Below, piece after piece: positions 7,569 to 48,257 of a DNA stretch of 64,000 nt (its first letter is position 1; the number at the start of each line of letters is the position of its first letter). The stretch comes from a virus (Duplodnaviria > Caudoviricetes). The notes under the pieces are model-generated. The model ran no database searches. It saw nothing but the letters and a program-made list of their open reading frames with translations, and was not told the origin of the DNA. The position numbers and the translations under genes are program-made. Location of the stretch: IMG/VR virus record IMGVR_UViG_3300018494_000083; one strand, written 5' to 3'.

Positions 7569-10174
7569 TTATAACATCTTCTTTATGTAATCTGGTATCG
7601 TGGGTATATCACAATCTGCTTTGATATTCTTTTTGGAATTCTTGTCATATGTGATATTAAGTTTATAGCCCATAGTTTTGAGATATGTATTAAGCATATC
7701 TACTGCCCTCGATTTCTCGGAAGGCATATTGATAATAAATCCATCAGTAGGATCATCTTCAAACAAATCACTTGCTCGTCTTCCTTCAGTGGAAGATGCA
7801 TGAGATCTGAGAAAATAGTCCAACGCGTCATAGTCGGCTGACAGCATCAAGATATTCAATTCCTGTTCCAGTATCTTCATGTAGGTCGTTAATCTACATC
7901 GTCATTTAGACTGCTCTAGGTCGCCCTAGAAGTTGAGACTATATCTTCACTTTATAAGTGTCTACCATTTCCATTTAAGGGATTCTCACCCACTCACTTG
8001 AGCCGTACTCCTGTTGCTCTATTTACGATCGCCGAGCCTAGGGATAGTCGTTGAACGTTACTCTTTCGAGTCTTCGCTGCTGATTGTCTGCTAGAGACTT
8101 CCCAGCAATTAGATAGATAAGGGCTAATGTTAACCCAAGCGATTCATTATGTTCACACAGGTCGTTAATCTGCGCAGTTCTCTTACGAACTTCTCTATAT
8201 TGCTATAGATGTTCAGACTATATCACCACCCGTTCTGGGTGCATACCATTTCGAATTAAGGGAATTTCACCCGCTCACTTGAGCCCTACTCCTATTGGTT
8301 ATTTCAAACCCGAGGGATAGTCGTTGAACGTTCTCCTTACGGAGCTTCGCTGCTGATTAGGTCTATGACCCTTCCAGCAATTAAATATGTTTGCTACTAG
8401 CTATTCCTAACTAGAGGTGCAATTGCTTACACTGATCAGGGTATGGAATTTTATGTCTTGCTGCCTTGGTGGATTTAATAGGCATTGAGGTTCGAGGATT
8501 GTTCATTGACTTAGAACGTACAGAGAACTTAGTAACAGGTTCCTGTTTAAGTCTCATAATATATTCGTCAGCCACAATTACTTTCTTGATCGTCTTATGT
8601 CGTTCACCATCCTCGTTAGTGTACGTCATATAGGTACGTTCAGGATTAAACTTATCATAGAGCTTGACCATAGTATCGCCATTTACGCAGTACATCGGAG
8701 ACTGGATGATATAGATTCGTCCATCTTCTATCTTCTTCATAAAGTCGATTACTTCATCATTACTCTTGTATGCGAGGTACTCTCTCATGGATGCGGCTTG
8801 TTCAGGGGCAGCAATATCCAAGAAGGAATAGAGATACTTAAACTTTTCGGAAAGAGAATCCATACGAGAGATTCTATCCCTTACAGTTTCAGCAATCCAG
8901 TTCAATTCCATCTCATAAAGCTGACCACTGTTAAGACGACCAAGAACGCCAAGTGCATCGATTCGGATATCAGGCACTACACCATCTTCAGTGCATCCCA
9001 TTTCCTCATCAGAAATGACGTTACTTAATACGGATTTATTACCGTATCTACCTGCAATCTTACATCCTCTACGGAGCTTCTCTATTTTATACATAGTGAA
9101 TTCCATCTGGATATTGGAGAAGATTTTGTCTTCATCTGCATACTTACAAGTAGGGTCGAGGTAGTCTTTTGCCTTCGAATACAGTCTGGAAAGTTCCTCG
9201 GTGTATTTAGAATCTGAATTGATTATCTTCTGGAACTCTTCATAGATTTCCGTATAATACTCAATCAGTCGTCTCATGTAACGCTTTACCTGTGCATATG
9301 CGGGAAGATCAGGTATGTCATCAATCGATTTGTTTGACCAAATATCGATATCTGCGATTACGAAGTTATCAGACATTTGGTATACATCATCGGATGGGAA
9401 AATCTTTCGCAGATTAGAATTCTTCAGATTGAACTGGTCCATTGCCTTGTTCTTTCTTCGAACTGCACAGATTACTGCCTTTTTGGTTTTCTCACCAATG
9501 TCAGGGAACGACTTATAAGTCTCGCTATTACCGTAGATATTCAGAGGAATATCATTATCGTTGATCGGTACATCGCAAGTATCTACATATGTCGTTGCCA
9601 TCTTCTTGGCGAAGCTTTCGGATACAACAACTGCATCCTCAATGGTTTCCTGTGATATCACGTAAACTACCTTGGCATTGACACCATATCGGTAGTTCTG
9701 GTACTCGTCAAAAGACGGTGACATATACATGACTGTGTCTTTTGGAACTGTGTCACCAACTGAATATGAGTCGATAACTTCATTGTTCCATTTATACCCA
9801 TACATCTCGGACAAGTTTCTCACTTCCTGTCTCTGAAGAATTCCGTATTCGTCTTTCTTCGGGTCATAGGTAATGAGAGTATACGAGAATCCAGGGTACT
9901 TCTCAATCTTCTTCACGATCTTGATTTTACTATCTGTCTTCTTATATCCCGTGGAATACTGACCGAACATATGTTCATAGCCGGTAAGCACACCAGGGAT
10001 TTCGGCATGGATAGGAACCAAGCATTGCATCAAGTGAGAACTCAGCATTGTAGCTCTTGCACTTGATGAGTATGAAGAGAGAGATAATAAGCCTATAGAC
10101 AAGGCATCGTCGAGAGAGTCAAGTTCATTTGCTCGATCTCGTATTTCTTGCTCGAAGTAAGCTTTGTTACTCAT
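7569..10174 (-). CDS. Phage RNA polymerase beta-like subunit, C-terminal half; spliced (exons 10174-8429, 8144-8133, 7868-7569; ~685 aa)
   Basis: GCKIAGRYGNKSV and RLNSGQLYE motifs. Removing two group I introns restores PDQC-NRLG-EQELNIL, equivalent to RpoB GQRFGEMEVWAL. Confidence 0.9.
7869..8132 (-). mobile_element. Group I intron (264 nt, no ORF), RNAP beta-like gene intron 2
   Basis: P1 gggU-uaacauua-Gccc with U.G pair; core AAUUGCUGGGAA / AAUCAGCAG / GUUCAACGACUA / GAUAUAGUCU; terminal G; frame restored. Confidence 0.9.
8145..8428 (-). mobile_element. Group I intron (284 nt, no ORF), RNAP beta-like gene intron 1
   Basis: P1 gugUaa-gcaa-uuGcac; same conserved core; terminal G at 8145. 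Confidence 0.9.
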
Positions 10175-10260: not shown

Positions 10261-11943
10261 TTAAAAGTCATCGTCAAGGAAGTCGTCGAGTGTATCATTC
10301 TTAGAACGATCATCGTCGTCGTCATCAAGAGTTTCCTTAGTACCAAGATACTGCTGATAATAAGGAAGCATGAGATTGTATAATGTTACGATCAACATCG
10401 GGTTCTCAAATGCCACCTCACAGAAAGTCTTCTTAGAGAAAGGACAATCCTCATGACCAGGAATAACAAACTTGTTACCCTGCTTCTTAACGATATTAGC
10501 GTTGATTGCATTATGGAGAAGAGTCAGAGACTGACTGAATCCATTCTGCTTATCGAAGATCAGTTCGATATCTACATTGGATGCGTTGGTTCTTGACTTG
10601 TAGTATACAGCACTAATGATATTACCATTAATACCATATTCCTTGTCAGGCTTAAGCATTCCCTTATTCTTCAAACGAAGAGTGTTATTGGAAAGGTATA
10701 AGAATGCTCTACCACCGCTAAGTGATTCGTTTTCCATTATCTTCACACAGGTCGTTAATCTGTGCAGTTCATTAAGAACTTCTCTAGGTCACCCTAGAAG
10801 TTGAGACTATATCTCGATCTTTACAGATCCGTTCCATTTCGATTTAAGGGATTCTCACCCACTCACTTGAGCCCTACTCCTATTGCCATTTTAAAGGGTT
10901 GGCTATTTCAGGATAGTCGTTGGACGTTTAATAGATTGGCTCTCCCGATGGGAATTGAACCCATAAAGAGATATTCATAGTGACGTCACTTCTATTATTA
11001 TTACCTCCACCCTTTCCGGTCGGGCGTCTTTACATTTGACCACGGGAGAATATACCATATCTATTACTTCGCTGCTGATTGTCTACTTGAGACTTCCCAG
11101 CAATTAGAAACGTTTCAGTTATAAGTCACCTTATAACTAGGCGAATGTTTCACCTAACCCTACGAGATCCCGCGCCGGTGGGAGGAAGCCCGTCGATATC
11201 TTTCTACTGATCTGGTTGATTACGAAGAGGAGAATGTTTGCTTTCTTACACCAAGGCAAGATCTGCTTAAACATCTCGGAATTGAACTTGGCGTTTCTAG
11301 CACCTGCCATATTATTGGTGGCACTATCAAGACCGTCCATGTTTTTTGTTTCCTCAAGAATAGAACTATCCTCAGAACGCATCACAGCCAAAGAGTCAAT
11401 GATTACGACCGTAGGAATGAGTTTCTTAATAGGAGCACCGTATGTATCCTTAAGATTACTTTGGGTATCCTCAAACTCTTTTCTATTATTGAGTTTCATT
11501 TTTGCATGGTCAAGGAATCTATCTACGATCTGCTCAGCATGGGTATCCTGGTAGATAGCATAGTGATTTCTTACCCATTTGGTTTTCATACCGGTAATGT
11601 TAATTACACGGTTAATATGTGAAGACTGCTCAATATCCTCATGGATAGTGAAAGCATTCTCATATCTGGAAGTGATTGCTACTGCAATCTGTTGGGACAA
11701 TGTGGTCTTACCGAGACCAGGGTCTGCGATAAATGCGGTCATTGTACCATCAACGAGTCCAACGGAATCGTATTCTTCAATACACTCGTCATCATCGTCG
11801 TAAACTTTTACACGTTGACCGTTAACGAAGTCCAAGGGCATAAAACCGGTAGGATATGCAATAGGTGTAGTTGCCTTCATATCCTTGGCTTTCTTCTGCT
11901 CTCTGACATTGTTAAACATTAGAAGTCCTAGTGTCTGAGCCAT
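10261..11943 (-). CDS. recA: RecA/UvsX-like recombinase; spliced (exons 11943-11152, 10734-10261)
   Basis: Walker A ADPGLGKTT, Walker B VIIDSLA, FVINQI. Splicing gives VGLG-ENESLSGGRAFLYLS (cf. RecA ETTTGGNALKFYAS). Confidence 0.9.
10735..11151 (-). mobile_element. Group I intron (417 nt) in recA, carrying a tRNA-like insertion
   Basis: P1 uaggUgaa-aca-uucGccua; conserved core as in the other introns; terminal G at 10735. Confidence 0.9.
10937..11049 (-). ncRNA. tRNA-like element (pseudo-tRNA) nested in the recA intron
   Basis: Acceptor TCTCCCG/CGGGAGA + G-CCA, D-arm GTC-aaatgtaaa-GAC, perfect T-arm ATGGG-TTCAATT-CCCAT; non-canonical anticodon arm and ~44 nt variable region. Confidence 0.75.
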
Positions 11944-14265: not shown

Positions 14266-15541
14266 ACCATGATATACCTGCCATTCAAACCACTCATCTG
14301 TACTAATTCCGGACCATGCAATCATAACACATCTCCCATCTTGTATATCATAGTTATAGGTTCTAGCACCTGGAGTAGCACCATACTTTTCATTAGGTGC
14401 AGATTCTCCACTCTTTCCACTTTTCTCAATATATACCGGTATTTGGCTATACCAGCTACGAATATTCTGACTGACCCACTCAGTTATTGCTCCATTCCAC
14501 GGAGTAAGCAAACACGGGCAGTATCATAAGGCAATATATTTTCAACAATATTACCATTAGAACCGATTAAGAATATGAATTGACTATACCAGTGCTTAAT
14601 ATTTTGTATTACCCAGTCATCTATATTACTCATCCATGGAGTAATTCACCAACTAGTTTAGATGATGGATTATATGATAGACATGTGCCATTGTTGTAAA
14701 TAGACATTATCTGATCTAGACTATATGTGCTGGTTGATTCATTTCGTGGAGTAAGTGCGTACCATTTATGCTAATTCCAGGATGTCTCAATGTTCTAGTT
14801 CCAGCTAAATAGATTATAAGCCAGTTATAATCTGTTGGATCCGTAGATTCAAGTAAATAAACTGGAGTAGATTTCACCACTTGCACTTTACGAAGTCATA
14901 TTCTTATTCATAGCTTGACCATAAACATGAATTTTATTTGTTATTTTACATTCTTTATCATTTTGAAAATATGGAGTCGTCATACTGATAATAGCAGATC
15001 CAACCCATACCTACATAATAATCATATATTACAAACATATCATCGCTAAATGATTGAGTATATGGTGGCAGATATGCACTACTTGGAGTCCATACGAACT
15101 AGTTGTCATATCATTATTGAAATCTCCTGTATCTCGTATTAAGCAAATTAAGTTATTCAACCAGGTATTTCCAGCAGAGGATAACCATCTTGGAGTTAAT
15201 CACCTGCACCAGTTCGTTCACCGACCCAGTGTCCCTGATATGTATAACTGGATCCAGCCCAATTAATTCCAGCTATCCTATTTATTTCTTTTTGATGTTC
15301 GGATTCTGGAGTAGATATTCACCAATTGCGGTGTATGAACTATATCCCCAGTCTTTTAATATGGATAATCCAGTTATATCTTCATAAGCAAACTTTCCTT
15401 GTTCAATATTGATCAAAGATGGAGTAATCCACCAATGTGAGCATTTACGGAATACGTGTGATCAAATGCTTCACCAATCTTGACTGTTTTCCAATGTCTA
15501 TGTTCATTATACGTTGACATTTCATGCCTTGCTAACGGAGT
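14266..15541 (-). repeat. Variable-region cassette array B (11 units, ACTCC-anchored)
   Basis: GGAGT on + strand ending at 14376, 14505, 14642, 14752, 14868, 14977, 15089, 15196, 15312, 15425, 15541 (spacing 107-137). Units read TP... in frame and mostly end at Gly; 10/11 stop-free. Confidence 0.9.
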
Positions 15542-15567
15542 CAATTTAAACAAAAAAAATAAAGATT

Positions 15568-15593
15568 GAGAGGTGGGTTTTCCCCCACCTCTC
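15568..15593 (-). terminator. Intrinsic terminator directly upstream of cassette array B
   Basis: GAGAGGTGGG-ttttcc-CCCACCTCTC hairpin with T-tract on the minus strand. Confidence 0.8.
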
Positions 15594-15594
15594 G

Positions 15595-21097: not shown

Positions 21098-21127
21098 AAC
21101 CCCATGGGAAATTAATCCCATGGGGTT
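21098..21127 (-). terminator. Intrinsic terminator closing the large non-coding region
   Basis: AACCCCATGGGA-aattaa-TCCCATGGGGTT hairpin, T-rich tail on the minus strand. Confidence 0.75.
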
Positions 21128-21129
21128 AT

Positions 21130-23135
21130 TTTTCTCGGCTACCGACGCAGAACATGAGTGTCTCTGTGTATAACTGTTTCTCCCTGCGCCCCTCATCGTG
21201 TCTTCCTCTATGGCTATAATATGTATTATTTCCATATGGTTGAACACCCTCATCCAATTAACTAATAAGGAGACTCTTGTTGGCGTAGTTTTGTTACGCA
21301 ATCGCCTACATTAATTAACTTAGTCACCTTTCGGGACTCGTCCTCGCCTCACATCATATAACGACACCCAATGACTGGGTGTCAAAAAGTTAAGGTGAGC
21401 TATTACCCATTGTAACTTCTCTACCTTATAGTGGTAGGTACGGATAAATTACATAGGTCCCAGGTCACTCATTTCTGGGGCTCTTCATGGTCTCTCCATA
21501 TTGAGGATCAATTTGAGGCTTACCATTATTGCCACCCTCTTAATGAAGGCTCTAGAAAGGACATTAAGTCTTTACATTAGCGGCTGGAGGTGTCGTAAAG
21601 AACAACGTAGAACTTCGACAAAATGTACCGCCCGGCATGTCGACTTGACCCATGCCGATATCGAGAAGCCAGCAATCGCGGGAAACATCACATTCATCAA
21701 ATGACTGTACCGGATTCACTTAATAAATTGAAAGACCGAGAATGCTAGCTGGATTGTGCCCACGACTGCTCTAGCATATCATGGGCGGATAGAAGACAGC
21801 GACTGCTCTAGCATATCGCCGTCTGAAAGGAAAGATGTTAAAGTCGTGTGCTCTAATTTAGAGACGTGTCAGGCTCTAACATCAACATGGGAGATTTGAG
21901 CTTCGAACTCACTGTCGCTTTGTTGATCTCTTTATCATAACGACATCCATCTGGGTCTGCGGCTTCCCACTAACCTCGAAATGACTCTGATTTCAACTAA
22001 CACAGAATCTCCATTTAGAAATTTGACAACCGGTCTAGAGACGTATATCACGGGACCATACGATCATATATACGCTATAGTTTAACTCTAGCTTGGCTCT
22101 ACTCTCATTCCACGTGCAGAGACCAGTAGATCTATATAGACTATCTTTCGATAGTTATATTTAGCTGGAGCAGATTTACTGTGCTTCGAATCACAGCTTT
22201 CCCAAACCTGCCAGAAACGTGCACCTTTTTACCAGCCGCAACGTAGCACTCCGTTACTTGGGCGATGTTTGAAACATCAACATATCTCATGCCCCGTGAG
22301 AGGTTCTTACTTACAGCGTGACCTACATTATCCATCAAACATACAGCTTTTTACTTACTTCAAGTTTCAAAATCCTTTGGGGAGATCCACTTTGGTAACG
22401 GTACTGTAACCCGGCTCAGAAAGTGCGCCCACCCAGCCAAGGGAGCCCGCTAGAAATGCCCACATGACCGCGATCACCGAACGACTCGGATGCGGATACG
22501 GGGGGATGTGCGGGCGGCGGCGAAGCAGCACCAAGTATATGTGTCTTAGCCCAGTCCTTAATATGTCGATGCTATGAGCGTTAAACCAAAAGTTCGTCAG
22601 AATTTTACTGACCGAGAACCTCGGGCATCGATAAATAAAAATAAGAGAGATACTTCATATCATCGCTTGACTATTTGATATATGAGTTTAACGTGTCTGT
22701 CGGATTCGACGGCAACGGCAAAGCAATTCGTTGATAAGACACTATGAAAACTCTAATAGGTTGATCACCGATGAAAAAGGATGCATTAAAAAATGACACG
22801 TATCCATAATGAAGGAAGCAATGGTACAAATGTCACAAGCGGCAAAAATGCAATCGCTCCAAAGCAATTTGGGGCTGGAAGATCGTCCTCCTTTTCATGA
22901 CAAAGCCAAACAGTTCTTAGATTACGAGAAACAAACAAGAAAACTTCAATTCGCAGGATAACAAGAAGGAATGTGAAGTCGTTGAATCTAGAATCAAATA
23001 TGAGTATCTCTCTATGGTGTTAGGTGGAGGGTATGACCCTCCCATTGGGTTTCCTGTGAGCAGTGTTTATTCTTCCTCGTGGGCAACGGGATTACCGGAG
23101 AAACCAAAGAACACAAATGTTACCTAACATATGGT
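21130..23135 (-). ncRNA. Putative giant structured non-coding RNA (~2 kb); strand inferred
   Basis: No credible ORF, higher GC than flanks, many hairpins and long-range stems (22644-22660 with 22998-23013; 23017-23025 with 23122-23130; ~22566-22572 with ~22625-22631). Confidence 0.6.
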
Positions 23136-23264
23136 AATAATTTGTTAGAGAGTGTATTATTTTTTATTCTCACTAACCCATTATCGTAATTATAATATAT
23201 AATTATCTTTTGTGATAATCCAAATAAATGAGGGGATAGTTTTGTCTATCCCCTCACCATTTGT

Positions 23265-25694
23265 TTACTTGTACATGATTTCAAATGCGTAGTCAACCAT
23301 CTTCAGCTCTGCTGCTCTTTCAGGTTTACCCAATCTGTTCAATGCCTTGATGTTCATATGATCAAGACAGAATACACCCATGGTTGTACAGATGTACATC
23401 GGATTAGGATTAGCTTCAGATACCGAGATGACGTCAACAAGCTGACCACAGGAGCTATTGATTTCTACTACTCTTCCGTTTCTCTTAGTGGCAGGCATAT
23501 TAAGAACTTTGATCTTCTTAACATATCCTCTATCGGTTAAGAGTGTGATACTATCATCTCCAACCTTAATAGTTGTTACACCAATAAGAGTATCGTCTTC
23601 AGGAAGCTTACATGCAGACACACCTTTGGTATTGAACGATGTCGTTTCAAAATCATCAAAGGGGAACATTGCTGCTTTACCACTCTTGGTAAATATCAAT
23701 ATTCTATCATCTTCAGTAGCTATCGAAACACCGCTTAAAGTGTCCTGTTTATCGAGCTTCATCAATACAAAGGATCTTTCCTTGTCGGCAAGTTCCTCAC
23801 AAGATGTCTTGGAAATCATTCCGTTAGTCGTGACAGAAACTACGTACTTTCCATCAGCTTCAGTTTCCGAGATATTGATAGCCTCTACGAATCCGTTATT
23901 CTTGGATCCACATTGAGTATATGCAATACCTACAGATTGGTTGTTACTGTTACCGATATCGGAAACCTTGATAGGTGTACATCTTCCGTCATTGGTAAAC
24001 AGTGCGATTGTGTCACGGTTATTTACAACCATGACCTTTCTCACCTTGTTATTGGTTTCGATTCGACCGATCTTATACCCACGCTCTTCATAAGGAAGCT
24101 TCTTTATATAGTTATCTGTAAAGATAAGATAATGTAAAGTGTCCGGAACCTGGGTAGAATCAAGAAGCTGCATAATCTCAGACTTTCTGGGAGTGCCGTA
24201 TTTCTTGATACCATCTTCAAGTTGTTTGATGATGATTTCATCAATATACTTATGATGATTTGTGATCTTATCGAGTCTGTCTCTTTCTACCAGGAGATCA
24301 GCCAACTCATCTTTGTAGGCTTGCAGTTTGTCTTTCGCCAAGTCTGCAATACGAACGCCGATGATTCGCTCAGCCTGATAGTCGGTGAGTCCCCACTTCT
24401 TCATGATCTTCGGAACTGCATCCTCAGACTTATTATTACGAACGATCTTAATAAACTCATCAATCTGTCCAGATTCAATGACTTTAATAAGAGGCTCAAG
24501 GAAGTGGATTCTCTTCATGACATTTACAAGGTCAGATTTGTAGATTCGTTTCAAGGTTTTTCTTCTTGCACGGATCCACTCGAGAATTGCGATACGAAGA
24601 GTATAGTCTACCGACTCGAGGCTGTTTACAAATGCATATTTCATGACATATGTATTCTCGAGCTGAGTAAGCTTATACAGCTTCTTCATCAATTCTTCTA
24701 TATTATATCCACGACGAACCTCGATGGAAAGACGGAAGTGTTGACCATAGTCACTGGAACATCCGTCAATATCAGAGATTTCAGGAAGTTTACCTTTTTC
24801 TACCGCAGTCCTGATTGCTTGCTTGATAGTCTTAGGGTCTACCTCAAACGGAGCAGATGCAATTTCAATTACATCCTTTCCATCATAATGGTTTCTGGAA
24901 TAGGTGGCTCTCATCTTTGCAGTGAGGTCAATCTTATCCAATACACCATGAAGATCCTTATAGTTAACAAGGTCACATCCTTCAGGATCGTCAGGATACA
25001 ATTCGAATTTAGCATTTGGATCTTTAATCAACTTAATGGTTGCTTCAAAAGCTTCCTTCAAGTTAAATCCAATAAGACCACTGTATCTACCAATACCCAT
25101 AGATCTATCCCACGTGAGCAGGAAGACAGGGTACTTGGAAGGAAGATACATTGGTTCAAGACCAGATTCATCAAAGTTGGGAATCCAGTCAACGATCATA
25201 TCTGTTTTGGGATTACGAAGTTTCCATTCTTCAAAGTAACAGTCATAAGCAAAATCAGACATAGTACACTCAGTATAACGCTGATGTGCATATCCAGCAG
25301 AGTCATAGGCGGTACCGAAGTTACCAACACCCTGGATAAATGTAATATTGTTTCCCCAAGGTTGTGCCATCTTTACAAGTGAGTTGTAAGTGGTACTGTC
25401 ACCGTGAGGACTGTAGTGTCTAAGTATATGACCGATTACATGTGTCGACTTAGAAACTTTGCCGTTATAAAGATGTAAATCATATAACGCCATTAAGATT
25501 CGACGGTGAATGGGTTTCAAACCATCCTTGATTTCACGAATTTGGCGGCGGAGATTTACATTGGCACCGTAGATAGCCATGCGGTCAGCATTGTATTCTA
25601 CAGGTTCCATCTTTACGGCGTTTGCATCAATTGCTTTACAGAGACTATCTATATCATAGACTTCTCTTTTACGCATTTGGTCTTTCTTAGCCAT
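23265..25694 (-). CDS. gyrA: Type IIA topoisomerase subunit A (GyrA/ParC-like)
   Basis: DGLKPIHRRIL, YSPHGD, catalytic AHQRYTE, C-terminal beta-pinwheel repeats. Confidence 0.92.
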   Translation of the reverse strand: MAKKDQMRKREVYDIDSLCKAIDANAVKMEPVEYNADRMAIYGANVNLRRQIREIKDGLKPIHRRILMALYDLHLYNGKVSKSTHVIGHILRHYSPHGDSTTYNSLVKMAQPWGNNITFIQGVGNFGTAYDSAGYAHQRYTECTMSDFAYDCYFEEWKLRNPKTDMIVDWIPNFDESGLEPMYLPSKYPVFLLTWDRSMGIGRYSGLIGFNLKEAFEATIKLIKDPNAKFELYPDDPEGCDLVNYKDLHGVLDKIDLTAKMRATYSRNHYDGKDVIEIASAPFEVDPKTIKQAIRTAVEKGKLPEISDIDGCSSDYGQHFRLSIEVRRGYNIEELMKKLYKLTQLENTYVMKYAFVNSLESVDYTLRIAILEWIRARRKTLKRIYKSDLVNVMKRIHFLEPLIKVIESGQIDEFIKIVRNNKSEDAVPKIMKKWGLTDYQAERIIGVRIADLAKDKLQAYKDELADLLVERDRLDKITNHHKYIDEIIIKQLEDGIKKYGTPRKSEIMQLLDSTQVPDTLHYLIFTDNYIKKLPYEERGYKIGRIETNNKVRKVMVVNNRDTIALFTNDGRCTPIKVSDIGNSNNQSVGIAYTQCGSKNNGFVEAINISETEADGKYVVSVTTNGMISKTSCEELADKERSFVLMKLDKQDTLSGVSIATEDDRILIFTKSGKAAMFPFDDFETTSFNTKGVSACKLPEDDTLIGVTTIKVGDDSITLLTDRGYVKKIKVLNMPATKRNGRVVEINSSCGQLVDVISVSEANPNPMYICTTMGVFCLDHMNIKALNRLGKPERAAELKMVDYAFEIMYK

Positions 25695-30932: not shown

Positions 30933-33900
30933 TTAAGTACTGAGCTCCTTAAGGTCAGGAATGTACTTCGACATGAATTCTCTACGAGAATCTCTAGCCG
31001 CCTGTTTACTTGAGTGCCACATTGCCATATCTTCGAATGCCTTCTCGGTATCTTTAACTGTGATCTGGACGAGTCTCTGATGAGTTCCATCCATACAAGT
31101 TGCTCGAAGATCTTGGGGATTCATTTCACCTACATTACCTTCACATGGGTCGTTAATCCATGCAGTTCATTAAGAACTTCTCTGGGCTTTCCCCAGATGT
31201 TGAGACTATATCTTCCTCTCATATTGAGAAGATTTACGCTTCGATTTAAGGGATTCTCACCCACTCACTTGAGCCCTACTCCTATTGCCGACTTCCACGG
31301 CTTATTTCAGGATAGTCGTTGAACCTTCCAGATATACTGGATTAGCTGCGGATTGTCCAATCTTTAGCATTGTTACCATTGGGTAGCTAAAGCTCTAAGG
31401 AGGTTCCCGCAATTTCGTAAATATGGACCATTGATCCTTTGTATCTTGTAAGATCTTTCACTTTGTATTTACCAAAGATATTAAGAACTCCAGCGATACT
31501 CAAATTCTTCTCCCCGTCTGATCCTTCGACGCTATAACCGTAGATATTACCGATGTTGGCGTTCATCAATGTAATCAACTTCTTAGTCTTCTTATCATTG
31601 ACAAAGTCATCATCGAGCTCTATCATTTCCCAGTTAGAGTCTTTGATACCAGAGATCTCTACACAACCATCATTCCAGACTGCATTGAGCTGAGGGCTGA
31701 ATTCTTTCTTTACAAGTGCATCCCACTTTGCAACACTCTTCTTATCATAGCCAAGTCTTTGCAGATTAGCACAGATAAGTTCAATAAACTCAGGTGTACA
31801 AATACTGTTATCTGCCACCTTTTGGAGGTAATCAAGATACTGCTCATTTCTAAGCAGGAACTCTCTTACCTGGGTCTTAGACATCTTCTCCTTCTTGAAG
31901 TAGATGTCGTTATGTTTTGAGAACTTATTCTGGAGATAAGTAATGTACTCACGGTTACTTGCCACGAATACTCTCTTACCACCATCATTGAAACCGAACA
32001 ACGGAGGCTGTACAATGTAGAGTCTACCGTCTTCAATTACCTGAGGAAATGCCCTCATGAATATAACGATAAGACCTGCTTGTATACTACCACCGTCGGG
32101 GTCCGCATCAGTTAAGACGAATATTTTATCTGGAATGATATCGTCTATATTTCCTCTCTTACCAGGAACGAGTCCAATGATACGAGAGAGGTCACTGATT
32201 ATATCTTTCTTAAGTAATTCTGCCGTTGGACAATCATAGATATTATCAACTTTCATTATCTTCACATAGGTCGTTAATCTATGCAGTTCCTAAAGAACTT
32301 CTCTATATTACTATAGAAGTTGAGACTATATCTTCACCCTTAACAGGGGCATACCATTTCGATTTAAGGGATTCTCACCCACCCACTTGGGTCCTACTCC
32401 TATTGCCGACTTCCACGGCTTGTTTCAGGATAGTCGTTGAACCTTCATCTTTCGATGCTTGGCTGCTGATTAGGTTTGGAACCCTTCCAGCAATTAAATA
32501 TGTGTCCGTATACCATTACTGGTATAGGAGGCTAGTTGTTAACCTCTGAGTTTATAAATACTCTGATAATCCAAACGTGAGCTTTCAACCTGATTCATTT
32601 TATTCACATAGGTCGCTAATCTATGCAGTTCTCTTATGAACTTCTCTAGGTCTCCCTAGATGTTTAGACTATATCTTCATCTCCTTTCGGAGAGTCTACC
32701 GTTTCCATTTAAGGGGATTTCACCCACTCGCTTGAGCCGTACTCCTATTGGTTATTTCTAACCCAAGGGATAGTCGTTGAACGTTACTCTTTCGAGTCTT
32801 CGCTGCGGATTGTCCTTACGGATATCCCCGCAATTAGATAGATACCAGTATACAGTCACCCGTATACACAGGCAATCAATTCACCTGCAGAGTCTCCCTC
32901 TACTATATAAAGCTCAGTATAAGAAGTTGTACATCCCATTCTCTTAGGGAAGAACTTCTCAATTGCATCCTTACTTAAGCCATTACCAACTTTCTTAACT
33001 TGCTGTCTAGCTTTGATAGAAGACATTCTTGCCTTGATATTATCCCTAAGGATAGTGGCAATGATTCTTATATCAGAGTCAGTCATCTTGTTGAGCTGTT
33101 TAGTAATGAATTCTTCGATCTCTTCTCCGATAGTTACGGAGGTGAACTTCTCTTTAAACTGACCAAGATACTCAGGTTCGTTAGTCACCAAGACAACTAC
33201 ACCACAAAGACCAAGACGAACATCTTCCTTACGGAATTGATAGTTCTTCTTATCCTTCTCAGACAGGAAGTTCTTGTATAGATACTTGCGGAAGAACTCA
33301 TATAGTGCATTGGATACTGCCTCTACATGCGTTCCGCCTTCTTTGTTATAAATATAGTTACACCAACCCATAATCGCATTCTCTTCGGTAACTGCTTTAG
33401 AGTTATAACCGAAACCAATACGACACTTGGTTAGGGATCCCTTAGGTTGGTAGTCAAGGAACCATGTCTTAGAAGTTGATTTACAGTACTTCTTAAACAG
33501 CTCCTCAGTAGTAAGTCCTTCAAACTTTTCTTTGATCTTCTTACCCTCTTTGGTTACACCAGAGAACTTAATCTTAAAACCAGGGCATGCATCGGCTTTT
33601 TCTTCAACCATCTGCATGATATTTTCACAGCTAAGCTTATCAGTCTCTTTCAAATATTTATCAGAGATACGGAACTTAACAAAAGTTCCATGTTTATCAG
33701 GATCTGCCTTTTCGACGATTTCTTTCTTGAAATAACCGTCTACATATTTTCTGGTTACGGATTTCTTATCTCTCGTTGATGTAATCTCAAAATAATCAGA
33801 CAAGAAGTTTGCCAGTTTATTACCAATACCATGTAATCCACCGGCACTCGTATAGGCACTTTCATTACCCTTAGAGAACTTACCAGAACTGTTAAGGACT

Positions 33901-39382: not shown

Positions 39383-41986
39383 CTAAATAAGTACTTTCTG
39401 TCTTCTACTAATATGATAGAAACCATCTCTGATAATAGATTTACCCGTGGTTCTGCCATAGATAGAAATATATCCCTCGGAATTAGCCATTGCCTTTATC
39501 TTGGTTAGTTCCATCATGCGAAGAGTTCTAAGCTCTTTCTCTTTATCTTCGAGCAATTTAAGAGCTTGACGTTTCTCCTTAATTGCATCATCTGCATTCT
39601 TGCAAACGTCGACGATACTATCAAACGAGTCTTCATAATCTTCACCAAGCGAACTACAGAATTCAAGGAATTTATTTTCGCTTTCCTCTTTAGGATCTGT
39701 AAAGTCTGCTCTACCCGTGGTTCTTTGAACACCCATCGGGTTAAAGTCTTCCATACTAAGTCTTGATAAGGGTTTGCCATCAATATCTGGTGTAAGCAAA
39801 ATTTGGTTGTGTTCATCAAATGGATGAAGGAACAGATAAATCCTATCTTTATTAGGCTTACCTCTAAACTTCTCCAGTTTGAATCCCATGTATTGCTTAC
39901 CTGTATCTTCATCTCCGTCTTGTTCACGGTTGATGATAATACAACAGTCCGTATTTTTCATGACCATTATCTTCACACAGGTCGTTAATCTGTGCAGTTC
40001 TCTTATGAACTTCTCCAGCATTTCTCTGGATGTTGAGACTATATCATCATCTTCTTTCGAAGGGTTATCCATTTCGATTTAAGGGATTCTCACCCACCCA
40101 CTTGGGTCCTACTCCTATTGCCGATTCTCACGGCTTATTTCAGGATAGTCGTTGAACGTTCCTCTCTCGAGGCTTCGCTGCGGATTATTCAATCTTTAAC
40201 CTTTTTACTATTCCTCGGATAATTACTCCGAGCCATTATGTTTCACATAACTTAGTAGCCAAAGCTCTAAGAATATCCCCGCAATTAGAATAATTTTGTA
40301 ACTAGTCCATCACTAGACTAGGGGACATGCTAATCCCATGATTCCAAATATCTTCACTAAGGTCGTTAATCTTAGCAGTTCTTCTACGAACTTCTCTAGG
40401 TTACCCTAGAAGTTGAGACTATATCTTCATCCTTTATATAAAGGAGCTCACCATTTCCATTTAAGGGGATTTCACCCACTCACTTGAGCCGTACTCCTGT
40501 TGACCATTTCAGGTCCAATGGGATAGTCGTTGAACGTTACTCTTTCGAGTCTTCGCTGCTGATTAGGTCTGTAACCCTCCCAGCAATTAAATGAGGATCG
40601 ATATACGTTACCGTATAAAGGAGCAAATTCCTTACTCACGTTTTGTTTACCAAGTAACTTAGTTGTATTCTTTTTGTTATTAGCCACTGCTTCAGACATA
40701 ATCGAAGAAGCAGTTCTGTTTAACTGAGCCGCAGAGATGAACGGAATATGTCTAGCCTTTGCAAGCTCTGCCATTTCCGTTGCTACATTACCCAAGTTAA
40801 AACGCATTTCATTTGTTTGATGCTTGGGCTTAAGCTTCTCAATATAGTCCTGTACCACTGCAATGATCTGAATTCCCTTACGGTCAAAGTCAGAGATCAG
40901 TGCATCAATATCAGATACTCCAATTTCCTTATCTGAGAAATACCTGAAGATAAAGTCGATACTGTTCTTATCGCTTCTCTTATTGATAAGACCGGCAGAC
41001 TTAAGACCTTCGACAATTTGTTCGTTGGAGAAGTTTCTGATATCTTCGCCAGATACAGACATATTAAAGATTCTCTCAAATGTCTCTGATTTAGAGTTCT
41101 CTTGAGAGATGAATAGTACTGCTTGTTTCTTTCCATCCACTATGGGTAACTTGTTATACTTCGTTATCCACAATGCACAGGAAAGTAGAACGATTGATTT
41201 ACCTACACCAGTAACACCCATGAACAGATATGATCTACCTGATTCAAATCCACCGTTCAGCATCTTATTCAAGAACTGAATTCCGGTTCTGAGTTTGTTA
41301 TTCGGTGCATTCAGATCGTCCATAACCGAATCTATCTCACCTAAGATCGTATCGGTTGTTAAGTCGAAACCTTTACCGTCTCGACGATATTCTTCACTCT
41401 TACGAACTTCGGCATCGATCTTTGTCATTATCCGTTTAAGTTCGTTAGAGAAGTCAGAAATTCTGTTAAAATATCCTTGGTCCTTTCGCTCAAATAGGGA
41501 AGCCAGTTCCTTTGAGCAAGTAAGAGACCATCCATTGATCAGATTCTCGAATACCATAGTATTTAAATACTTACAGGTATCATTATCCATTCTCTGACCA
41601 ACTAAGGGCTTGACCACTTCCTGGTCAATTATGTCTTTCAATCGGCGGTCGCAATTTCGAAGAATATGTTGAACCACCAATGTTTTAGATGTTAAGTTTA
41701 GCTCACATCTAGCTTCCATAGCAAGCTTAATAAACTCAAGTCTTGCCTTTGCACTATCATTAGTTCTATATGGTTTAGGATCAAGCATTTCGAACATTGT
41801 CTTCATGTTAGCAAGAGCCGAATGTGTAACACTATCAGCTCTCATTGTAACTGAATAAAGACAAAATTGATCTAATTCATCTATTGATAGATTGAGAGGA
41901 AGCAGACAGTAATCTTTACTGTCTCGTGGATCGTAAACTAGTACATCCTCAATAATGTCTTCCGACGCATAATCAAGGTTGAACAT
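39383..41986 (-). CDS. dnaB: Replicative DnaB-like helicase; spliced (exons 41986-40634, 40344-40333, 39964-39383; ~648 aa)
   Basis: GVTGVGKS Walker A, FISQEN, VVQDYI, SAAQLNR. Splicing gives NVS-ESWD-VMKNTDCCIIINR (cf. DnaB RESGSIEQDADVVLFLYR). Confidence 0.9.
39965..40332 (-). mobile_element. Group I intron (368 nt), dnaB intron 2
   Basis: P1 gggaU...Guccc; conserved core; terminal G at 39965. Confidence 0.88.
40345..40633 (-). mobile_element. Group I intron (289 nt), dnaB intron 1
   Basis: P1 gagUaag-gaa-uuuGcuc; conserved core; terminal G at 40345. Confidence 0.88.
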
Positions 41987-47189: not shown

Positions 47190-47277
47190 CAAAAAAAAAT
47201 AAAATTCGGGAGAGGCTTCAACCTCTCCCGATATGTTTATATATTTTTAGCCAACAAGCAACATATAAATAATGATG

Positions 47278-47460
47278 TTAAAATATTGGAGTCAAATTTT
47301 TCATAGGATATCCTTTCCCGTGTGCAGTAATGATTGGTTGCAGCAACGGTTTCTTCTTATGAATAATAGGATTTTTCGCTACCGCTTCGTTATGGCAGTC
47401 ACAAACCACTTTCAGTAGTTGTGGATGCTTGCAACAAAGGCGAATAAAATTATCGCTCAT
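47278..47460 (-). CDS. Small hypothetical protein, copy 1
   Basis: 60 aa, AAGGAG RBS, paralog of 47689-47871. Confidence 0.7.
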   Translation of the reverse strand: MSDNFIRLCCKHPQLLKVVCDCHNEAVAKNPIIHKKKPLLQPIITAHGKGYPMKNLTPIF

Positions 47461-47688
47461 ATTGAGATCTCCTTTCGATATATTTCGAATTTGACATCAT
47501 AACCTAGGTTGACGGATAAGAGGGCTGACTCTTATCCGTCTTTTCCTTGATTATTATATCATATTCATAAATATGGTGTATAATTAAGTCTTATTTTAAA
47601 CTAAAAAAAATAAAATTCGGGAGAGGTTGAAGCCTCTCCCGATATGTTTATATATTTTTAGTCAACAAGCAACATATAAATAATGATG

Positions 47689-47871
47689 TTAGATTATTGG
47701 TGTTATATTCTTCATAGGATATCCATTTCCACTCGTTGTGATTTTCGGCATCAACAGTGGTTTATTCTTATGAATAACCGGATTTTTCAATACACCTTCA
47801 TTGTGGCAATCACAAACAACTTTCAACAGTTGCGGATACTCACGGCAAAGGCGAATGAGGTTATCACTCAT
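47689..47871 (-). CDS. Small hypothetical protein, copy 2
   Basis: 60 aa, AAGGAG RBS, clear paralog of copy 1. Confidence 0.7.
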   Translation of the reverse strand: MSDNLIRLCREYPQLLKVVCDCHNEGVLKNPVIHKNKPLLMPKITTSGNGYPMKNITPII

Positions 47872-48074
47872 GCTAAGTATCTCCTTTCAATGAATTTGAA
47901 TTTGACATCATAACCTAGGTTGGCGGATAAGAGTTGCAGCTCTTATCCGTCTTTTTCCTTGATTATTATATCATATTCATAAATATGGTGTATAATTAAG
48001 TCTTATTTCAACTCAAAAAAAATAAAAATATGGAGATAGGCATTTCTGCCTATCTCCTTTATTTGTCGTTATTT

Positions 48075-48257
48075 TTAACTGCGAGGTCTGAAGCATTCGA
48101 CAAGAACACATACAGTTACAGAACCAATCAGATACCACCATGCAGGACTGCAAACCTCAATACCAGCTAATGGTGCAAGATTAAAGCATACCATGATAGC
48201 AAGTAATCTGATAATGCTATGAATGGTTGATTTATATTTCTTAATAAAATCCATCAT
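48075..48257 (-). CDS. Small two-TM membrane protein
   Basis: 60 aa, two hydrophobic segments. Confidence 0.6.
   Translation of the reverse strand: MMDFIKKYKSTIHSIIRLLAIMVCFNLAPLAGIEVCSPAWWYLIGSVTVCVLVECFRPRS

Follow-up and report, generated by a model that had tools for sequence, protein, structure and literature searches.

The lytic phage ICP1 counters the PLE satellites resident in its host with a phage-borne CRISPR-Cas system and nucleases, and PLE encodes the sRNA SviR. Antisense RNAs directed at replication functions include the CI RNA of P4, the C4 RNA of P1 and the RNAs that control plasmid copy number, and an engineered anti-primase antisense RNA has been used against dairy phages. 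Some phage RNAs are large and structured, such as GOLLD and ROOL (PMC12286853), the latter averaging 581 nt (PMC5737381). RAGATH-36 (RF03104) is an orphan candidate motif.

The locus described here, found in a 64,000-nt stretch of phage DNA (the window), has features in common with each of these systems. As in ICP1 and PLE, it points to a sequence-specific conflict between a lytic phage and a resident island in which pieces of the opponent's sequence are taken up; it differs in having neither repeats nor Cas proteins, in being a long antisense patchwork behind a late promoter, and in that the satellite status of its target is putative. With the replicon antisense RNAs it would share pairing to the leader or mRNA of replication genes, although those RNAs act on their own element or are man-made, whereas the pieces in the window were captured from another element and vary among strains. 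Like GOLLD and ROOL it is large, structured and phage-encoded, with variable linkers, but it is of composite origin and gives no covariance-model match to them. With RAGATH-36 it has in common the T-loop hairpin, a second hairpin and the UAACGCU module, and true RAGATH-36 matches run on into the pseudoknot and 3' hairpin also found in the window; the differences are a core of about 465 nt, compared with 128 nt in the model and roughly 250-350 nt in compact phage copies, its escape from detection by the Rfam model, and the 0.5-kb antisense domain and 1-kb tail that flank it. A literature search of incomplete coverage returned no paper describing such a natural phage antisense system.

Genomic setting and composition of the locus

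The window is contained in a 183-kb viral contig (CheckV completeness 79%) of an AR9-like jumbo phage, near-identical strains of which were found in animal gut samples. An earlier note on this DNA had singled out a region of about 2 kb as ORF-free, richer in GC and a candidate giant non-coding RNA. The interval 21302-23264 is indeed the largest gap without an ORF of at least 80 aa in the 183-kb genome, with no such ORF across it, and the GC content of the locus is 0.43 against 0.39. It is flanked by gyrA (23265-25694) and by a gene for a 396-aa protein whose closest named relatives occur in AR9/PBS1, phiR1-37 and staphylococcal jumbo phages; phrog_2921 is listed as the flank opposite gyrA. No tRNA or tmRNA was detected at the locus, BLAST of the locus against phages and plasmids gave nothing meaningful, and neither Pfam nor PHROG matched any of the six reading frames of the tail and core. 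A 67-aa plus-strand ORF (21501-21704) was rejected as a gene, its matches being an apparent strain variant of the same DNA and low-complexity sequence only.

The gene-free 2 kb is a real non-coding RNA locus, and it is a composite of three parts (Table 1), not a single unknown giant fold.

Table 1. Coordinates of the elements of the locus, from the upstream to the downstream end of the minus strand.
Feature	Position	Strand	Remarks
Terminator-like hairpin after gyrA	23227-23258	-	Separates locus from upstream gene
AT-rich promoter-like site	23189-23218	-	Similar stretch directly before RNA core in relative L011; not above chance alone
AR9-type late promoter, AACA-N6-TA	23135-23146	-	Predicted start 23135
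5' antisense domain	22640-23135	-	Reverse-complement patchwork of P4-family primase gene
Weak antisense block	23094-23117	-	Primase nt 622-645, 21/24, E 0.002
Antisense block	23053-23089	-	Primase nt 800-836, 95%
5' arm of conserved stem enclosing V1	23003-23013	-	Pairs with 22644-22654
Cassette V1, 348 nt	22655-23002	-	Loop of 23013/22644 stem
V1 block	22982-22998	-	Antisense to primase nt 206-222, 100%
V1 block	22746-22931	-	Antisense to primase nt 4-186, 83-85% to single alleles
Leader block	22649-22686	-	Antisense to primase 5' leader, nt -48 to -13
RAGATH-36-type 5' module	22569-22627	-	CGAGGUU, T-loop hairpin, second hairpin, UAACGCU
GC-rich hypervariable segment V2, inside core	22418-22540	-	72% of sites polymorphic among strains
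3' module of extended RAGATH-36	22197-22262	-	Hairpin 22257-22238 and pseudoknot
Closing 3' hairpin of core	22163-22212	-	T-loop-like tip; two compensatory changes among strains
Structured 1-kb tail	21136-22160	-	Includes duplicated 18-nt hairpins, 21758-21824
Intrinsic-terminator-like hairpin	21098-21127	-	RNA contigs of two studies end just before it

Fold and variation among strains

The individual helices proposed in the earlier note are all present: 21384-21376/21370-21362 (9 bp, p 0.95), 21657-21651/21639-21633 (7 bp, p 0.82), 22155-22150/22145-22140 (p 0.99, with its GAAA loop on the minus strand) and the long-range stem 23013-23003/22654-22644, of 11 bp plus 6 further bp. The two copies of the 18-nt repeat, at 21763 and 21800, are 100% identical, and each lies within a hairpin of p 0.94-0.97. 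The description of the region as densely base-paired is right only in part: in folding energy the 5' domain and the tail exceed chance, whereas the core does not. The minus-strand z is -3.3 (5' domain), -3.2 and -2.1 (tail halves) and +1.5 (core), and in 150-nt windows it spans -3.2 to +2.2.

Ten loci of other strains, with about 93-98% identity over the region, were available for comparison. Polymorphism affects 6.4% of sites outside the cassettes and, in the flanking genes, 13% of third codon positions (p 3e-7). The covariation suggested earlier as a check was found in part, as some compensatory changes among strains in several helices (e.g. 22197-22192/22183-22178 and 21303/21272), and in 2 strain loci one A-U pair of the stem enclosing V1 has become G-U, a consistent change. 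Three segments, V0 (about 23105-23060), V1 and the GC-rich V2, are swapped wholesale between strains.

In relatives at 55-60% protein identity this position was examined, and neither such a gap nor the RNA is present there. A closer relative, L011 (71%), has a 1.1-kb gap whose resemblance to the gap in the window is limited to a motif of about 55 nt; the L011 core comes immediately after its promoter, with no antisense domain in between.

Evidence for transcription

The sequence AACA-N6-TA is the late-promoter consensus of AR9 (PMC5449584). In the genome studied here it precedes 26 of 138 ORFs, against 8.3 in shuffled sequences (shuffle maximum 17). The promoter-like AT motif noted previously does exist as a TATAAT-like site at about 23189, but such sites are no commoner than in shuffles (4 vs 5.0). 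The terminator claimed for the minus strand was recovered as a terminator-like hairpin (Table 1), and RNA contigs of two studies end at 21136, just before it, which is a weak hint of termination.

RNA-library contigs from three studies cover parts of the region; these contigs are unstranded, carry no information on start or level and may include DNA, and the runs were found by matching this region. Of two gut metatranscriptomes, run X16 provided contigs 21136-22283 and 22254-22492 and run X17 contig 21156-22393, so that single RNA contigs span the tail and the 3' part of the core, and shorter pieces occur in runs X18 and X19. An X17 piece starts at 22993 and continues into another V1 allele, which places the 5' domain in that library; it is the one run with cover of this domain, X16 having none there. 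The contig gap at 22500-22990 is uninformative because the sampled strains carry other alleles. The downstream gene is almost without RNA contig cover.

A minus-strand RNA is supported by these contigs, by strain conservation and by some compensatory changes, while we infer its strand and start from sequence features. The proposal of a giant non-coding RNA stands as far as a non-coding, structured, minus-strand RNA with RNA-library support is concerned; the locus is composite, however, and the contigs bridge only 21136-22492, no listed piece linking the 5' domain to the core.

The antisense domain

About 61% of the bases of the 5' domain match a primase gene, in pieces that are 83-100% identical. 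A plus-strand frame in V1 (peptide 22797-22958) matches the 527-aa D5/P4 primase P0110 with 83% identity. The five blocks of the window and four different blocks found in the same slots of other strains (nt 984-1079, 1097-1135, 1261-1296 and 1344-1386) all lead to one primase gene and, at the DNA level, all are antisense to the RNA. Eight other strain loci carry a V1 cassette of 228-230 nt, antisense to about nt 984-1079 and 1097-1135, in place of the one in the window, and in strain L015 the block of nt 800-836 is replaced by the pieces of nt 1261-1296 and 1344-1386. The blocks are not collinear with the gene: 800-836 comes before 1135-984, and in L015 1386-1261 comes before 8 nt left over from the 800 block. 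Since one insertion followed by deletions alone cannot yield this block order, it takes at least three gain or replacement events to explain it.

Many mismatches to one primase allele agree with another natural allele, and the V1 block of nt 4-186 is a mosaic of natural primase alleles. Indels and frameshifts are present in the blocks. The complementarity to the primase mRNA is extended and includes the translation start region (nt -48 to -13, 4-186, 206-222 and 800-836), as expected of a trans-acting antisense RNA, and the predicted duplex energy of the main block is -234 kcal/mol, compared with -38 for its self-fold. The stretch opposite the Shine-Dalgarno sequence is replaced by a hairpin (22684-22753) that leaves the Shine-Dalgarno itself uncovered; such a hairpin would prevent pairing with generic ribosome-binding sites. 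Neither a repeat family in the 5' domain nor cas genes at the locus were detected, unlike in a CRISPR array or mini-array.

Two tests for selection on pairing were null. Mismatches were not skewed towards G-U-tolerated changes (11 vs 8, p 0.65), and the antisense blocks were no more unpaired than the linkers (0.31-0.42 vs 0.42-0.44).

Positions 1-40 of primase P0110, the N-terminus covered by the window cassette, are visibly polymorphic among natural alleles, and this polymorphism is possibly escape variation.

The source element

The primase gene adjoins a gene for a large serine recombinase within a 3.6-kb core (L141:9816-13428) whose conservation is 93-97% between loci that differ in their flanks. 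A recombinase and a P4-family primase thus occur together in a small integrated element, an arrangement known from P4/PICI-like satellites. The nearest annotated proteins to the primase are P4-family primases, at about 37%. At one island locus, AbiTii and FRG/PDC-S15-like genes lie nearby, with bacterial chromosomal-type genes beyond, and no capsid genes were called within 21 kb around the primase. The primase blocks are the sole substantial matches between the 183-kb phage genome and the island loci, and the assembled part of the phage genome has no P4 primase of its own. The element was not found in IMG/VR, and about 800 sampled genomes of two clostridial orders (one order sampled twice) contained no primase-derived match; two single short matches among them, in a ribosomal-protein operon and in an unrelated gene, were treated as chance. 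This integrative element of gut bacteria is probably resident in the host of the phage, where it may act as a satellite or defence island.

The RAGATH-36-like core

The earlier note could match the region to neither GOLLD nor ROOL, and the family covariance models for GOLLD, ROOL, raiA and OLE indeed gave no match. A search of Rfam, proposed there as a check, returned nothing at gathering level and only weak, terminator-driven matches at E<=10; the RAGATH-36 model itself gave no match at E<=10 in the genome or the region, its gathering score of 70 bits being unreached, and a weak alignment of 19.4 bits in L011, through the motif that L011 and the window have in common. Custom models led to a different result for the core. 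Judged by its matches to these models, 22627-22163 (about 465 nt) is related to the extended RAGATH-36 RNA but larger, and V2 lies in its variable arm. It is called a relative and not a member because it falls short of Rfam's own cut-off.

Pattern scans recovered dozens of phage and MAG copies of the motif, several of them above the RAGATH-36 threshold. Most copies extend past the Rfam model into a hairpin loop pairing with a downstream GCAY and then a 3' hairpin; this extension is present in the window and was not clearly found in L011. Two covariance models were built without any sequence of this clade, with E-values that are rough owing to short calibration. Model R1, from 23 other-phage sequences including over-threshold RAGATH-36 matches, gave 57 bits (E 1.7e-11) at 22627-22569, and for model R2, from 17 other-phage sequences, 22262-22197 was the best match in 67 kb (E 4.6e-4; next best 1.3). 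The helices of the 5' module covary in the family, and one AU to GC covariation was found for the 3' module. In the predicted pseudoknot, loop GUGC (22249-22246) can pair with GCAC (22222-22219); the duplicated 18-mer, considered at one point as the pseudoknot loop of the core, was dropped since R2 places the pseudoknot at 22249-22219.

The V2 segment is A-poor, with at least three mosaic alleles, and could be a further captured guide, although no source for it was found. Minimal 5' modules of about 60 nt occur at L077:7734-7796(-), L084:542-603 and 826-903 and L090:2467-2528, and also in L095, L126 and L135. They lie between small ORFs, just before ribosome-binding sites, with two in tandem in L084, and twister, pistol-like and hammerhead-like RNAs lie near the one in L090; the minimal module is a candidate self-cleaving or processing element. 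The orphan RAGATH-36 module thus sits in RNAs of about 60 to more than 450 nt, providing minimal and maximal forms for biochemistry.

The structured tail

No relative of the tail was detected beyond close strains, and its similarity to the tail of L011 was not significant (score 327 vs 311 +/- 10). A 17-mer of the repeat recurs in nine unrelated viral contigs without any extension and was treated as chance. The palindrome CUAG lies in the loops of both duplicated hairpins, and a hairpin of the L011 tail has GAUC in its loop; these are possible self-kissing loops. The RNA locus of L011 (L011:620-1690) includes a structured tail of its own (z -3.7), and at 1122-1200 it contains a tRNA-like element whose anticodon arm is enlarged.

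Proposed function and alternatives

On balance, the more probable explanation of the locus is an RNA counter-weapon against a satellite-like island: a late RNA that would pair with the primase mRNA of the island and so shut down replication of, or interference by, the element. An older structured RNA, comprising the expanded RAGATH-36 relative and the 1-kb tail, would have gained a 5' domain driven by a late promoter and assembled from antisense fragments that were captured from the primase-helicase gene of an integrative element that carries the primase, the large serine recombinase and defence-type cargo. During infection this domain, with the core as a possible scaffold, would bind the primase mRNA by base pairing, which in this strain would span the leader and the first 220 nt, and pairing would block or destroy the message, leaving the element unable to replicate or interfere. 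Strains would keep the domain current by exchanging its pieces for others from the same primase gene.

The antisense domain could also be neutral debris, left by a gene of a mobile element that entered the leader of a phage non-coding RNA by recombination, decayed and was reshuffled through homology, only the RAGATH-36-like RNA and the tail being functional. The null wobble test, the indels and frameshifts, the lack of any accessibility advantage of the blocks over the linkers and the lack of the 5' domain in one RNA run are all consistent with this account, and even in the absence of selection pre-existing homology could itself attract further pieces of this gene, oriented alike. It is harder to reconcile with at least three non-collinear events that all involve one gene in a single orientation and affect fixed slots delimited by a conserved stem, with blocks of 36-43 nt kept at 89-98% between unrelated linkers, and with the absence of the rest of the island from the phage genome. 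Neutral debris is considered unlikely, and is kept in contention because the two tests for pairing selection were null and recombination driven by homology could mimic part of the pattern. The discrete blocks of 36-43 nt also adjoin a conserved, pseudoknotted T-loop RNA, and minimal 5' modules occupy slots of the kind in which twister and pistol ribozymes are found; the core could then act as scaffold in a ribonucleoprotein or ribozyme that is guided by the blocks to RNA or DNA of the island, or the RNA could be a sponge for island-derived CRISPR or antisense machinery. Such a guide or decoy appears distinctly improbable, as repeats and cas genes were not seen at the locus, many phages have the core without such a cassette having been seen, and no partner gene is linked to the core.

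A single ornate RNA of the GOLLD/ROOL type, with a 2-kb unit closed by 23128-23141/21225-21238 and primase pieces filling tolerant loops, would account for that 14-nt end-to-end complementarity and for the contigs of 1.15-1.24 kb joining core and tail. Its palindromic hairpin loops could form inter-chain contacts, which occur in GOLLD and OLE (10.1101/2024.12.08.627333). The end-to-end helix is, however, missing from the predicted fold and without covariation, no Rfam family matches, the tail is not significantly similar to that of L011, and L011 lacks the 5' domain, so that this possibility is rated lower again. A DNA element, such as a replication origin or packaging site without RNA function, could explain an ORF-free region with an AT-rich flank and a short direct repeat; it is hardly credible in view of the G-U and compensatory pairs, the GNRA and T-loops on one strand, the covariance-model matches, the RNA contigs, and its absence at this position from relatives with 55-60% protein identity.

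If the counter-weapon reading is true, a lytic phage becomes immune to satellites or defence islands in a sequence-specific way that needs no CRISPR: it converts parts of the opponent's own gene into an antisense RNA that is updated between strains. More tentatively, and short of a claim that we would call probable, gut jumbo phages may keep a renewable, CRISPR-free RNA memory locus, a counterpart of piRNA clusters, in which fragments of a rival mobile element's replication gene would be captured antisense, time and again, in fixed slots of a large structured late RNA that silences the rival. The cassette names an element that an uncultured phage has met in nature and thus offers a route to its host, and the antisense claim is directly testable by a reporter, without phage culture.

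Other features of the phage genome

Two more ORF-free gaps of about 1.06 kb each (14530-15594 and 47193-48253) are AT-rich, with a GC content of 0.34-0.35. A DGR-like cassette on the minus strand (53384-55407) comprises a reverse transcriptase of 367 aa, an RT-2 RNA (54524-54724, Rfam 90.8 bits) and an Avd-like gene of 164 aa; the assembled 183 kb yielded no variable-repeat partner for 54731-54900. A DGR origin of the variable segments was rejected, the genome containing no A-mismatch template. Eight group I intron matches lie on the minus strand within 7914-8438, 10782-11161, 31180-32892 and 40015-40643, several of them as close tandem pairs without a large ORF between. The gyrA gene is intact in the window phage and split by intervening ORFs in the related phages L004 (5248-8732) and L008 (5281-8962), as in AR9, one intervening ORF of L004 being of the HNH/NUMOD type.
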